A stretch of 64,000 nt of DNA from a virus (Duplodnaviria > Heunggongvirae > Uroviricota > Caudoviricetes): positions 12,612 to 76,611 of the IMG/VR virus record IMGVR_UViG_3300032225_001769; one strand, 5' to 3'. A program made the position numbers and the translations under genes. The notes under the pieces are model-generated. The model searched no databases. It was not told the DNA's origin and saw only the letters and a program-made list of their open reading frames with translations. This document shows, piece by piece, positions 3,767 through 12,713 of this stretch; position 1 is the stretch's first letter; each line of letters opens with the position of its first letter.

Positions 3767-3904
3767 TCATTTCTCCTCTGATTTTTGATTGTTAATATAA
3801 TTCATTTTAAAATCCCTAAGTTTTTGATATAGTGCAGTGTCTCCGCCAAGAAGCATTGCATTGATAATTGTATTTAATTCCCCTTCATTAATAGGAAGTT
3901 CCAT
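3767..3904 (-). CDS. Small conserved hypothetical protein (45 aa, not in ORF track)
   Basis: MELPINEGELNTIINAMLLGGDTALYQKLRDFKMNYINNQKSEEK. Start overlaps the g43B stop (TAATG) and it fills the g43-uvsX gap. Confidence 0.75.
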   Translation of the reverse strand: MELPINEGELNTIINAMLLGGDTALYQKLRDFKMNYINNQKSEEK

Positions 3905-5250
3905 TAGGTAAAAAATGAATCTAAGTTTACAGTATATTCAGTTTTCCATCCAATAGAATCCAGAATAGATTTCAGTGGATCGAGAAAACTCTTTTCAAAT
4001 TGTAATTCATAATCAATGTATTTGTCAAGACCAAGTTCTGTAGGAAAGTCTTGAATAAAAGAAATAACATTTTCACGAATAATATTTGGTTTTTTGAGGT
4101 AGATAAACTTAATCTTTTCACCATTATTAATGAGTGAATATTTGTGAGTAAGATTTTTATCCTTAATATAATGATTAAACAAAAGTGCTCCGCGAACATG
4201 AATTGGAGTTCTTTCCTTATAAATGTCAGAATGAGATCTATATTTACGAATATCAGATGCTGTACGTGGAAATGCAATCTGCTCCGGAGAAAGTTTTCTG
4301 AATTTAGTACGACACTTATCAATATAAGTAATCACTTCACTCTCTGTACCACTCATCATAATCTTTAGACCGTCTTTAATCATCTGACGGCAGGGAGCAG
4401 GAGTAGAAGATTTAACTGCCTCAATTCCCATCATTTTGAGTTTAGGTTCCTCATAACGAACTCCTTCGCTATCCCAGACATTCAGAATGTAACGCTTTTT
4501 GGCAGTCCAGATTCCACGATCCGCAATGTTTTCCCTTTTCATTTGCATCTTCTGATCATAGGCATTTACATAATCTGCCAGTTCTTGGTAGCAACCTTCA
4601 ATATACTTTTCAAGTTCCACCTGAGCGATCTTATCAAGGAATGAGACAATGCCCTCAGTAGTTTTCTCTCTTCCCTTGTATACAGTCTCCACCAAAGGGC
4701 CCATATTAAGATAAATGGAATCGGTATCAGAAGCAATAACATAGTCAACATCATTTGTCTTAAGAACTTTATTTAAATACTTATTAATTTTTTCTTCAAT
4801 CCAACGAATTGAAACTTGCCCCGAAAGAGTAATTGCCTCCGCATTTGCTAGTTTAAAATAACGGAAGTACTGATTGCCAATAGCACCATAAGCACTATTA
4901 AGTTGAATCTTCCTTGCCATTTGGATATTGTTGCACCTTGCAATCTCTTTTTCCAGTGCTGTTGTCTTTTTCTTTTCATATTCCTGTTTTGCAGCAATCA
5001 TCTTTTTCTTATAGATGGTGCGATCATTATATATTTTCTCCATCAGTTCGGGAAGAAATCCCTTTACCCTGCGGTAGAGTGCCCCATTCGCAGTCATAGT
5101 AAGATTTACTTTTTTTAGTGGTGTTAAATCCAACTCTTGTTTGAGAAGTTTATCTACACTCACCTTTGTAGTAAGTTCTCTTACCTGTTTAAGTGCCTCA
5201 AGTTCTTCTACAATTTCCTCACGGGACATTTTACGAATATCTTTCCACAT
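3904..5250 (-). CDS. gp43: Family B DNA polymerase gp43, C-terminal subunit (43B: fingers, palm motifs B and C, thumb)
   Basis: KIQLNSAYG (motif B), ASDTDS (motif C), KKRY, clamp-binding tail NLDSFF. ATG at 5250 has GGAG 7 nt upstream, preferred over the GTG at 5292. Confidence 0.93.
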   Translation of the reverse strand: MWKDIRKMSREEIVEELEALKQVRELTTKVSVDKLLKQELDLTPLKKVNLTMTANGALYRRVKGFLPELMEKIYNDRTIYKKKMIAAKQEYEKKKTTALEKEIARCNNIQMARKIQLNSAYGAIGNQYFRYFKLANAEAITLSGQVSIRWIEEKINKYLNKVLKTNDVDYVIASDTDSIYLNMGPLVETVYKGREKTTEGIVSFLDKIAQVELEKYIEGCYQELADYVNAYDQKMQMKRENIADRGIWTAKKRYILNVWDSEGVRYEEPKLKMMGIEAVKSSTPAPCRQMIKDGLKIMMSGTESEVITYIDKCRTKFRKLSPEQIAFPRTASDIRKYRSHSDIYKERTPIHVRGALLFNHYIKDKNLTHKYSLINNGEKIKFIYLKKPNIIRENVISFIQDFPTELGLDKYIDYELQFEKSFLDPLKSILDSIGWKTEYTVNLDSFFT

Positions 5251-5251
5251 C

Positions 5252-5335
5252 TCAATTCTCCATAATTTTAGTATGCTTTTTGCGGTTTTCACTCATAGTA
5301 ATAATCTGCAAGTTGTCTTCGTGATGCTTTCCTCC
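5252..5335 (-). pseudogene. C-terminal remnant of an HNH endonuclease gene between 43A and 43B
   Basis: Translates GGKHHEDNLQIITMSENRKKHTKIMEN*, the GGxHxxxNLQxxTxxEN half of an HNH motif. No start codon precedes the motif. Confidence 0.75.
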
Positions 5336-5337
5336 TT

Positions 5338-5452
5338 ATAAGATGAGGATATTCTACAACATTTTCTCCAATTCCGCAATACGATTATTAAGTTCATCTT
5401 TTTCTATAAGCGTTTCTGGAGATATTGCATATTGCATAATAAGATGAGGATA
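5338..5452. repeat. 14-bp exact direct repeat ATAAGATGAGGATA (5338-5351 and 5439-5452)
   Basis: Read directly. One copy encodes YPHLI of motif A, the other lies just after the 43A stop. Confidence 0.9.
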
Positions 5453-6631
5453 AAGTGAATTCAAATCGAAATTGACAACATAATCATAAACACCAGGAAT
5501 AGGTTCTTTTACATAAGCACCAGCATACTTGGAATCTTTATCCGTTTTTTCCTTAGGAGGAATTACAATATTCCTTTTCTTCAGATAATTGTAGATGATC
5601 GTATCCCACATACGAACCTGAAAGAATACATCCTCATAGTTTACTTTGGCGTCATATGCCATCGTAAGAGCAAGTTCAATCAGTTTCATCTTGTCTTCCA
5701 AACGGTCAACAAGTTCTACGTCCTTAATGTTATACTCTACAAATTTCTGCCAACCTTTAGTATAGAAGTCTTTGAATGTATCAAATTCACTGTGATCCAA
5801 CTTTTGTTGCTGCAATTCCACATTTGCAATATGGTCAAGACGATATGATTCCTGATTTGTATATGTAAATTTCTTATACAAATTAAGATAGTCTAATTGG
5901 GAAATTCCACCAATATCATAAGAAATGTGCTTGCGACCAGAAATATAAGTCTCATCTTCGGTTACAAGACCCCAAGGTGAAAGTCTTTTCATCAATTTCT
6001 CACCAAGAATTCTATCGAGGCGACGAACAATATAAGGAATATCATAAAGTTGATTATTCCAACCGGTTACAATTTCTGGGGTATCGTTCATCCACCAATG
6101 AATAAAGTCATTGAGCATACTATATTCATCAGAAAATTGCCGATATTCAACATTTTTTTGATTATTTTTAAATGGCCCTACACCCCAAGTTGTAATTTTC
6201 TTTGTATTATAATTCTGAATTGTAATCAGAAGCATTTCTTCAGCAGCACTTTCTACATCAGGAAATCCATTTTCAGATGCCACCTCAATATCAATTGTTA
6301 CTAATTTGATTTTGGAAATATCAAATTTGATTTGATCTTCAGGATATTTTTCAGAAATATATTGATAAACGTATCTATCATTACCATAAATCTTGAAACT
6401 TTCTACATCACTGTATTTTTTAATGAATTCTCGACAATCACGTACAGATCCTGGTTGAATGGATTGTACATATTCACCCTCTAACGTGACGTATTCTGTT
6501 TGTTTTTTGGAGGGGACAAAAAAAGTTGGAGAAAACTTCTCACGAGTCATGAAACTGCTTCCATTTTCATAACCACGAATTAAGAAATAATCTCCGATCA
6601 TTTGAACGTTTGTATAGAAGCGATATGACAT
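5354..6631 (-). CDS. gp43: Family B DNA polymerase gp43, N-terminal subunit (43A: exonuclease plus palm motif A)
   Basis: ExoI DIE, GWN...YD, YNIKDV, motif A DLNSLYP, then stop after SPETLIEKDELNNRIAELEKML. Confidence 0.95.
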   Translation of the reverse strand: MSYRFYTNVQMIGDYFLIRGYENGSSFMTREKFSPTFFVPSKKQTEYVTLEGEYVQSIQPGSVRDCREFIKKYSDVESFKIYGNDRYVYQYISEKYPEDQIKFDISKIKLVTIDIEVASENGFPDVESAAEEMLLITIQNYNTKKITTWGVGPFKNNQKNVEYRQFSDEYSMLNDFIHWWMNDTPEIVTGWNNQLYDIPYIVRRLDRILGEKLMKRLSPWGLVTEDETYISGRKHISYDIGGISQLDYLNLYKKFTYTNQESYRLDHIANVELQQQKLDHSEFDTFKDFYTKGWQKFVEYNIKDVELVDRLEDKMKLIELALTMAYDAKVNYEDVFFQVRMWDTIIYNYLKKRNIVIPPKEKTDKDSKYAGAYVKEPIPGVYDYVVNFDLNSLYPHLIMQYAISPETLIEKDELNNRIAELEKML

Positions 6632-6900
6632 CAGGTAGTTAGTTCTAGATACTTTTCGACAATTTGTGGAGTTGGATCTGCTATAGTAAGAATACTATCA
6701 GAATGAATCATAAGTTCTCTTTGATTTGTAACCTCGGGCCAGGGTTCCAAATAAAATCCATCTACGGAGTCAATTTTATTAAATTCGTAAGGATTAATAA
6801 GTTTACAATCCGGTTCTCCCAGTTCAGATCCAACTTCAACAATTTCAGTGATTAAGACAGTATCAACTTTCAGTAGAAGACACTTTACTGTTTTTTCCAT
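6631..6900 (-). CDS. Conserved cyanomyophage hypothetical protein
   Basis: 89-aa ORF coupled to g43A. Resembles the upstream ORF (LK..E/T.I.....E...C.L.NP, L.PW). Confidence 0.75.
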   Translation of the reverse strand: MEKTVKCLLLKVDTVLITEIVEVGSELGEPDCKLINPYEFNKIDSVDGFYLEPWPEVTNQRELMIHSDSILTIADPTPQIVEKYLELTT

Positions 6901-7198
6901 TTACTTTTTCCTCATATAGTTCAATTATACTTTTAATTGGTTCCACGATTGTTACAATCCAATCTTTAGGAACTGCTATTTTATCTTCAAGTGTAAGCAA
7001 AATCCAAGGGGATAATGTTACATCGATAGAATTTTCAACTTCTGTTGATGGAGTTTCTGTCAGAAGAATTGATTTGTTAATATGAATTTTATGTGGATTT
7101 TCAAATAAATATCCACATACTTCCTGTCCAGAAATCAATTCTTTTGCATCGGAAACAATAGTCTCTCCAGATTTAAGTAATGCAATTTTGATCGACAT
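6863..7198 (-). CDS. Conserved cyanomyophage hypothetical protein (probable paralogue of the downstream ORF)
   Basis: MSIKIALLKSGETIVSD...LSPW...WIVTIVEPI. Sigma70-type promoter directly upstream. Confidence 0.8.
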   Translation of the reverse strand: MSIKIALLKSGETIVSDAKELISGQEVCGYLFENPHKIHINKSILLTETPSTEVENSIDVTLSPWILLTLEDKIAVPKDWIVTIVEPIKSIIELYEEKVNGKNSKVSSTES

Positions 7199-12287: not shown

Positions 12288-12713
12288 TCAAAAACAAAAT
12301 TTACGAAGATACTTGATTGTTTCCTTTGGTTTATCTTCCAACCAATATGCTTCGTGCTCCAGTCTCCGATTGTCTTTTTTCTTGACTAGAGACAATGAAT
12401 TGTCGAGATATTGTAACTTTTCTGCAGTCAAAAGCATTCTGTTTAATGGAATTCCAATCGGTTTCATACCAATACACGATTGCACTACATGAACCGCTTC
12501 ATGATAAACAGTATCATTTAGATTCTTATTTGCATTTCCCCTATTCATAAGGGTCTTGGTGCAAACGAAAAATGTTTTATTGTCATTGATAATCCCACCA
12601 TCATAATTGGTATTAGAGCACCAGGAGATATTTTCCTTGACAGTAAAGTGTGCCTTTGCAATAAGATCTAAGATTTGCTTACCTTCTGGACTCAAGTAAT
12701 ATGTAAAAATCAT
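12288..12713 (-). CDS. Hypothetical protein with HExxH (zincin-like) motif
   Basis: TVYHEAVHVVQ and downstream EHEAY. Confidence 0.65.
   Translation of the reverse strand: MIFTYYLSPEGKQILDLIAKAHFTVKENISWCSNTNYDGGIINDNKTFFVCTKTLMNRGNANKNLNDTVYHEAVHVVQSCIGMKPIGIPLNRMLLTAEKLQYLDNSLSLVKKKDNRRLEHEAYWLEDKPKETIKYLRKFCF

Follow-up and report, generated by a model that had tools for sequence, protein, structure and literature searches.

How does a replicative DNA polymerase gene come to be broken in two, with its catalytic aspartates left on separate chains, and how might the pieces still work together? The question is raised by gene 43 (gp43, a family-B DNA polymerase) of an uncultured T4-like cyanophage, on a 64,000-nucleotide stretch of DNA (the window; positions 12,612 to 76,611 of the IMG/VR record IMGVR_UViG_3300032225_001769, a 140.6-kb virus record estimated to be 65% complete). 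This gene is genuinely split into two genes, 43A and 43B, and the split is under purifying selection. The explanation that we consider likely as a whole is that the two-chain gp43 was left behind by a homing endonuclease, that its facing chain ends are the arms of a hairpin, and that the interrupted region is a mobile module. As part of that explanation only, sequence and modelling also make it likely that 43A and 43B form a functional two-subunit family-B replicase. The coding features are as follows.

5354-6631, minus strand: 43A, an open reading frame (ORF) of 425 amino acids with the N-terminal and 3'-5' exonuclease domains and the first part of the palm, including motif A.
3904-5250, minus strand: 43B, an ORF of 448 amino acids with the remaining palm, the fingers and the thumb.
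5438-5470, minus strand: palm motif A (FDLNSLYPHLI) on 43A, with catalytic D389; from the translation, which aligns to RB69 FDLTSLYPS.
4885-4911, minus strand: motif B (KIQLNSAYG) in the second finger helix, on 43B; from translation and alignment.
4717-4743, minus strand: motif C (YVIASDTDS), with D175 and D177 of 43B; from translation and alignment.

A preliminary description of this DNA had proposed separate 43A and 43B cistrons, a tail helix after SPETL in 43A, a Shine-Dalgarno (SD) sequence and ATG belonging to 43B itself, and a break between motifs A and B that places the catalytic aspartates on different chains. All of these are present on the minus strand, with the motif A aspartate on 43A and those of motif C on 43B, and two adjacent cistrons with a separate 43B translation start are the arrangement of a bicistronic gp43 of the Petrov type. 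Membership in gp43 is indicated by matches to PF03104 and PF00136 above curated cut-offs: 43A matches DNA_pol_B_exo1 (1e-21) and positions 19-94 of the DNA_pol_B profile, 43B matches positions 99-452 of the latter, and DIE at 43A residues 114-116 gives the D-x-E of Exo I. The exonuclease motifs and polymerase motifs A, B, and C are all intact across the two proteins, and pieces of the window align to RB69 residues 341-431 and 529-640. The closest cultured phages, S-SRM01, S-T4, and P-SSM2 (Kyanoviridae), each have one gp43 of ~830 amino acids; identity to the S-SRM01 gp43 is 80-82%, with 43A 80% identical to residues 2-410. Alignment to unsplit cyanophage gp43 breaks off after SPETLIE and picks up at TKVSVDKLL. 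In the window, 43A ends with SPETL-IEKDELNNRIAELEKML, a 17-residue tail followed by TAG at 5354-5356, and 43B begins at ATG 5250 with MWKDIRKMSREEIVEELEALKQVRELT. Because the 43B frame is shifted by +1 from that of 43A and stop codons intervene, the break is not a single nonsense change. An alternative 43B start, GTG 5292, is immediately preceded by TGA, and since conservation among relatives begins at MWKD, with variable sequence before it, ATG 5250 is the 43B start; the sequence ATTATGGAGAATTGA(A/G)ATG is present at this point in most relatives.

The same split recurs in other viral DNA. Among the 120 best metagenomic matches to 43B, 97 start with the conserved 43B head (longer gene calls counted) on contigs of up to 255 kb, and 73 are exactly 448 amino acids long, with 76-91% identity. 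Both halves, with the same stop and start, were found in 18 loci. Head positions W2, M8, E12, I13, E16, L17, and L20 are invariant in the 97 proteins and the tail pattern N-x-RIAELE-x-ML is conserved in the 18 loci, with the hydrophobic faces of both helices invariant and their solvent positions variable. The ratio of nonsynonymous to synonymous divergence (pN/pS; 11-12 loci) is 0.33 in the tail (pS 0.57), 0.30 in the head, and 0.18-0.22 in the core, with a value of 0.51 for the first 15 head codons. A tblastn search of 50,697 cultured-phage records with the head returned only a partial match in S-CAM7 and no split gp43. In the literature, we found no description of a split cyanomyophage gp43; the cyanophage 'split DNA polymerase' found there is podovirus PolA only.

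The gap between the cistrons indicates what broke the gene.

5251-5353, minus strand: intercistronic gap of 103 nucleotides (nt), with no Rfam family; it aligns to the gap of the related locus L029 in two blocks.
5252-5335, minus strand: relic of an HNH homing endonuclease, its last 27 codons and TGA (84 nt), which reads GGKHHEDNLQIITMSENRKKHTKIMEN-stop and has 98.6% nucleotide identity to L029.
5258-5261, minus strand: GGAG, the SD sequence of 43B, inside the last codons of the relic and 7 nt upstream of ATG 5250.

Fifteen of the 18 loci have a longer gap, of 570-773 nt, in which a freestanding endonuclease gene lies. Ten of these encode an HNH protein of 186-188 amino acids (PF01844, 5.6e-9; several HNH PHROGs) and five a GIY-YIG-like protein of 174-181 amino acids (phrog_314 'homing endonuclease', 2.7e-9; PF22945, 1.5e-4, below cut-off), and in most of them the endonuclease stop lies 1 nt before the 43B ATG. 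The relic is identical to the C terminus of the intact 188-amino-acid HNH genes of L025, L029, and L037. The two blocks in which the window gap aligns to that of L029 (94% and 98.6% identity) flank a clean deletion of ~509 nt, with its junction at 5336/5335 (TTATAA/GGAGG). No intact HNH or GIY-YIG-like copy lies elsewhere in the 140.6-kb genome, where the relic is the only HNH match. An endonuclease ORF between the halves in close relatives, with a relic in the window, is the arrangement known as 'genes in pieces'. A longer relic of 171 nt occurs in L015 and L021, and because its junction differs from that of the window, the endonuclease has been lost at least twice. From these alignments, the gp43 break is best read as a homing-endonuclease landing site, and the window gap is a fossil HNH gene. 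The preliminary description was right that the split is genuine but missed this endonuclease scar: the AAGGAGG in the gap consists of Lys-Gly-Gly codons of the HNH relic.

For the same reason, AAGGAGG was rejected as a strong 43B ribosome-binding site, the working GGAG being the one in the relic's last codons, and the reading of a TCCTC/GAGGA hairpin that sequesters the 'SD' was given up because AAGGAGG proved to be HNH codons. The relic also keeps a 14-codon ORF, MSENRKKHTKIMEN (window 5254-5296, minus strand), whose start codon was an internal Met codon in the former HNH gene. Its end lies 1 nt short of the 43B ATG, so that its translation could be coupled to that of 43B. In a scan of 5000-7000 for sigma-70 promoters and terminators, promoter-like sites were rarer than in shuffled sequence and no terminator was found.

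The intact elements have further features in common. Of the 15 endonuclease-bearing loci, 14 have a T4-type late-promoter word, TATAAATA, after the 43A stop (L029:1676-1721 and equivalents); the window deletion cuts through this word and leaves the remnant TATAAGGA at 5339-5332. Residues 5-48 of the HNH protein are homologous to residues 131-174 of the GIY-YIG-like protein (45% identity, E = 3e-12), forming a helix-turn-helix module that is N-terminal in the former and C-terminal in the latter (L029:1722-2288, L023:1549-2094). Because both endonuclease families share this module, a common DNA target is suggested, and its swapped position looks like domain shuffling around one DNA target. Individual loci vary. 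The HNH gene of L025 (L025:1933-2499) has HEVYH where others have HEVDH, which may inactivate an otherwise full-length endonuclease, and L009 (2331-2500), like L010, has an extra ~170 nt between the HNH gene and 43B with a 54-amino-acid ORF that carries two CxxC pairs, is zinc-ribbon-like, and is absent from other loci.

The helices on either side of the gap have homologs in unsplit polymerases.

5357-5407, minus strand: tail helix of 43A (IEKDELNNRIAELEKML, residues 409-425), which corresponds to hairpin arm 1 by homology to unsplit hairpins.
5170-5250, minus strand: head helix of 43B (residues 1-27), of which residues 16-27 correspond to hairpin arm 2 by homology to unsplit hairpins and residues 1-15 are a new N-terminal extension.

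The preliminary description had called these helices non-homologous and proposed a search for unsplit relatives with a helical hairpin at SPETL. Such relatives were found (S-CAM7, L036, and P0123-P0131), and they contradict the first of these statements, with tail and head homologous to the two arms of an in-frame hairpin. In the cultured phage S-CAM7, the unsplit gp43 (NC_031927 gp177, 867 amino acids) has a helix, a short polar loop, and a second helix inserted in frame at the exact break site. Its arms align with the 43A tail and with residues 16-27 of the 43B head, and it shares YAISPETL and RRVKG with the window; unlike the window gp43, it forms an unbroken chain, its loop is free of stops and starts, and no endonuclease is present. 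The metagenomic unsplit forms (L036, which is P0121, and P0123-P0131) are diverse in sequence. The SPET-to-ANG spacing is 64-66 residues in unsplit hairpin forms versus 34 in plain forms. P0123 and P0124 are nearly the split module with its loop retained: where they have S-NGKNDE, the split form has KML-stop, the endonuclease, and MWKDVRKMSREEIVE. New residues in the split form are only the first ~15 of the head and the last 3 of the tail. An AlphaFold2 model of P0121 has a helix at residues 409-422, a turn at 423-425, and a helix at 426-441, with block-mean predicted local distance difference test (pLDDT) values of 86-95 in this region (overall mean 84.6), and its fold is RB69-like (template modelling score 0.82-0.85 against RB69 gp43, E = 1e-65). 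By alignment and model, the hairpin predates the split, so that the tail and most of the head were not invented for it. Other insertions at SPETL occur in the marine T4-like gp43 proteins P0133 and P0134 (also P0235), with a spacing of 69-75 residues or, in a short variant, 37, and the site seems to be a general insertion hotspot.

The module around the break also has a different history from the polymerase that carries it.

5062-5432, minus strand: mosaic (co-converted) tract comprising the end of 43A, the gap, and the first ~63 codons of 43B, from sliding identity.

Identity between the window and L029 is 91-99% near the break (gene nt ~1200-1500) but 62-83% over most of the remaining gene. 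The flanks of the window are nearest to alleles of the plain type, without a hairpin. Two of these, L007 and L013, are 85-97% identical to it across much of the downstream part and have no alignment to the window between gene nt ~1220 and ~1570, which sets the limits of the mosaic tract. A backbone tree was built from motif B onward (335 columns), to keep clear of the co-converted tract. In it, split rows fall at at least six places among plain rows, at least seven changes are required, and monophyly of the split rows is rejected (log-likelihood difference 213; approximately unbiased test, p = 6.9e-8). Close backbones can carry different endonucleases, as in P0001 (HNH) and P0002 (GIY-YIG-like). 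Therefore, with the same tail, gap, and head on at least six polymerase backbones, the module moves horizontally. The mosaic pattern and tree incongruence suggest that the likely mechanism of transfer is homing with co-conversion of the flanks. We tentatively raise a stronger version, which we regard as somewhat doubtful: that the mobile unit is a self-compensating gene-splitting cassette, in which the endonuclease is flanked by codons for a pair of complementary helices, by a stop, and by an ATG with its ribosome-binding site, such that homing into a hairpin-less gp43 would install the break and a protein clasp in one step.

Assembly of the chains was addressed by co-folding 43A and 43B, as the preliminary description had proposed, in three runs with alignments built in this analysis. 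The interface score ipSAE was 0.83, 0.83, and 0.84, with 0.00 for the best control; in the benchmark, 58 of 80 solved complexes pass this mark, as do 2 of 110 mismatched pairs. The partner had a pLDDT of 88, and contact agreement between runs was at least 89%. Confidence is highest for contacts between the motif A strand of 43A and the motif C sheet of 43B. The contact between tail and head that had been envisaged is also predicted and involves the hydrophobic faces of both helices, with L414, I418, L421, M424, and L425 of the tail and W2, I5, M8, I13, L17, L20, and V23 of the head in the interface. From this model, the tail and head helices probably act as a clasp that re-joins the halves.

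Several observations weigh against parts of this explanation. The co-fold result is expected for halves of a fold that has been solved as one chain (RB69 gp43), and so shows likeness rather than binding and does not bear on whether the helices are required. The 40 contacts of highest confidence all lie in the palm sheet, and none is a pair between tail and head. Because the hairpin is present in unsplit enzymes, its origin does not lie in assembly, and its role may be a different one. Aeromonas gp43 split at the finger tip co-purifies and is active without an added zipper (PMC2988022). Synonymous divergence in the head is low (pS 0.20-0.38), and part of the head's conservation may thus reflect recent spread. 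As for the mosaic, transfer may have gone in either direction, with the module entering plain alleles or split alleles taking up plain segments.

The best-surviving alternative builds on the second, third, and fourth of these points. It holds that the chains join by ordinary palm, finger, and thumb contacts alone, and that tail and head are severed arms of a hairpin with an older role, such as a replisome contact, that is not needed for association. However, the head gained ~15 residues that extend arm 2, among them the invariant W2 and M8 that are predicted to touch 43A, and on both helices the hydrophobic face has stayed invariant while solvent positions varied. We regard this alternative as unlikely, although to be taken seriously, and prefer the explanation in which the hairpin arms serve as a clasp.

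Very improbable is a single chain restored by recoding or splicing, whether by ribosomal bypass as in T4 gene 60, by a group I intron, or by a split intein. T4-like phages use all three devices, and the 43A stop directly follows a Leu codon. However, the 570-773-nt gaps of the relatives contain a complete endonuclease ORF, and the first 15 head codons evolve as protein-coding sequence, as seen in their pN/pS and in the invariance of W2 and M8. Gene-60-type bypass is rejected, as neither downstream TTG (5312-5310, 5255-5253) is in the 43B frame. An Rfam scan of 4900-5700 found no family at threshold and hence no group I intron core, with only a chance match to a long non-coding RNA (E = 0.19), and the 103-nt gap folds no better than shuffled sequence (z = +1.0). 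Elements of 103-157 nt are too short for a group I intron, which counts against that reading. The tail ends in EKML and the head begins with MWKD, there are no intein blocks, and the Pfam scan gave no Hint or intein match, which agrees with the preliminary description in excluding an intein or split intein. Least credible of all is an artefact of assembly or sequencing at the break, or a defective phage whose polymerase is a pseudogene. Although the source is a metagenomic virus record of estimated 65% completeness, an identical stop, frame change, and start are shared by 18 independent loci and by 97 proteins drawn from many samples, the motifs are intact under purifying selection, and the deletion junction has only 2 nt of microhomology and therefore no repeat able to mislead an assembler.

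The history that we propose for the endonuclease-derived, two-chain gp43 would begin with a cyanomyophage gp43 subfamily in which a helix-turn-helix hairpin of ~30 residues lay after motif A and before the fingers, at RB69 residue ~431. A freestanding homing endonuclease gene would have inserted in the codons of the hairpin loop. As a result, 43A would have come to stop after arm 1, and 43B would have gained an ATG and a ribosome-binding site along with ~15 residues that lengthen arm 2. The module, comprising arm 1, the endonuclease, arm 2, and ~35 further codons, would then have spread to many gp43 backbones, likely by homing with co-conversion of flanks. In the window lineage, the later ~509-nt deletion would have taken the endonuclease body and the late promoter, while the 84 nt that include the 43B translation start were retained. 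The two proteins would be made separately, probably from one transcript. Reassembly would occur through the completed palm sheet, with motif A from one chain and motif C from the other, and the tail and head helices would probably repack as the former hairpin and act as the clasp.

Downstream of the split gene, a 45-amino-acid ORF lies between 43B and uvsX (window 3767-3904, minus strand), with its start overlapping the 43B stop. Small ORFs of 38-65 amino acids occupy the same position in S-T4, P-SSM2, L087, L088, and L090.

The general phenomenon of genes split by endonucleases is already known; what is new is the cut site and the case of a cyanomyophage gp43. Petrov and colleagues reportedly described, in 2006 and 2010, the split gene 43 of Aeromonas and Acinetobacter T4-like phages. 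That some of these phages have a split gp43, as the preliminary description stated, is borne out by the literature (PMC2988022, PMC3061061): in Aeromonas phages 44RR, 31, 25, and 65 and Acinetobacter phage 133, as in the window, a T4-like family-B replicase is encoded by two adjacent cistrons with a short gap or an endonuclease between them. Their splits sit at the finger tip (PMC3061061), and the window break does not. In our analysis, 44RR has a 43A of 498 amino acids, a 49-nt gap, and a break at S-SRM01 residues ~477-481, whereas the window break lies at S-SRM01 residues 410-416, after RB69 residue ~431. The 44RR break is thus ~65 residues further on, at the finger tip, while that of the window is between motif A and the fingers, in a lineage-specific hairpin. 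Judged from these positions, the window split is independent of the Aeromonas and Acinetobacter splits. The preliminary description had suggested an independent split in a cyanomyophage lineage; independence is favored by the different break site, but the split is not the mark of one lineage, as the module is mobile on at least six backbones.

Freestanding endonucleases are known to leave 'genes in pieces' in Aeh1 (nrdA/mobE), T4 (39/60, mobA), and phage 25, where a freestanding homing endonuclease gene lies between 43A and 43B (PMC2988022). In Aeh1 and T4, an essential enzyme likewise has its coding region interrupted by an endonuclease gene, and its two polypeptides come together again, which for the window is a prediction. 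The window differs from them in its host gene, in the two endonuclease families that occupy one site, and in the presence of the module on at least six backbones. The halves of the split Aeromonas gp43 co-purify and are active, but it was left open how they reassemble and whether the short gap of 44RR arose before or after endonuclease invasion (PMC2988022); in the window, the short gap is identified by homology as an endonuclease relic. Two non-covalently joined family-B chains also occur in the split PolB of Methanothermobacter thermautotrophicus, broken in the palm C-terminal to the fingers with genes 85 kb apart, and in an engineered split Pfu polymerase broken in a finger helix; neither is linked to a mobile element (PMC3061061).

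The cyanophage break is thus a new natural position at which a family-B polymerase tolerates a split, and it provides a comparison set of plain forms, unsplit forms with the hairpin (including cultured S-CAM7), split forms with an endonuclease, and split forms with a relic. For this system, the short untranslated gap in a split gene 43 is a fossil endonuclease, which answers the question left open for the Aeromonas phages, and the two-helix clasp is a testable candidate for how the halves reassemble (PMC2988022). If the idea of a self-compensating cassette is true, the cassette would be a counterpart, in quaternary structure, to introns in RNA and inteins in protein. More broadly, homing elements would have remodelled and shuffled a core replication gene that is essential to cyanophages of marine and fresh waters, and the use of g43 as a phylogenetic and diversity marker would be affected because the part of the gene near the break has a separate history.

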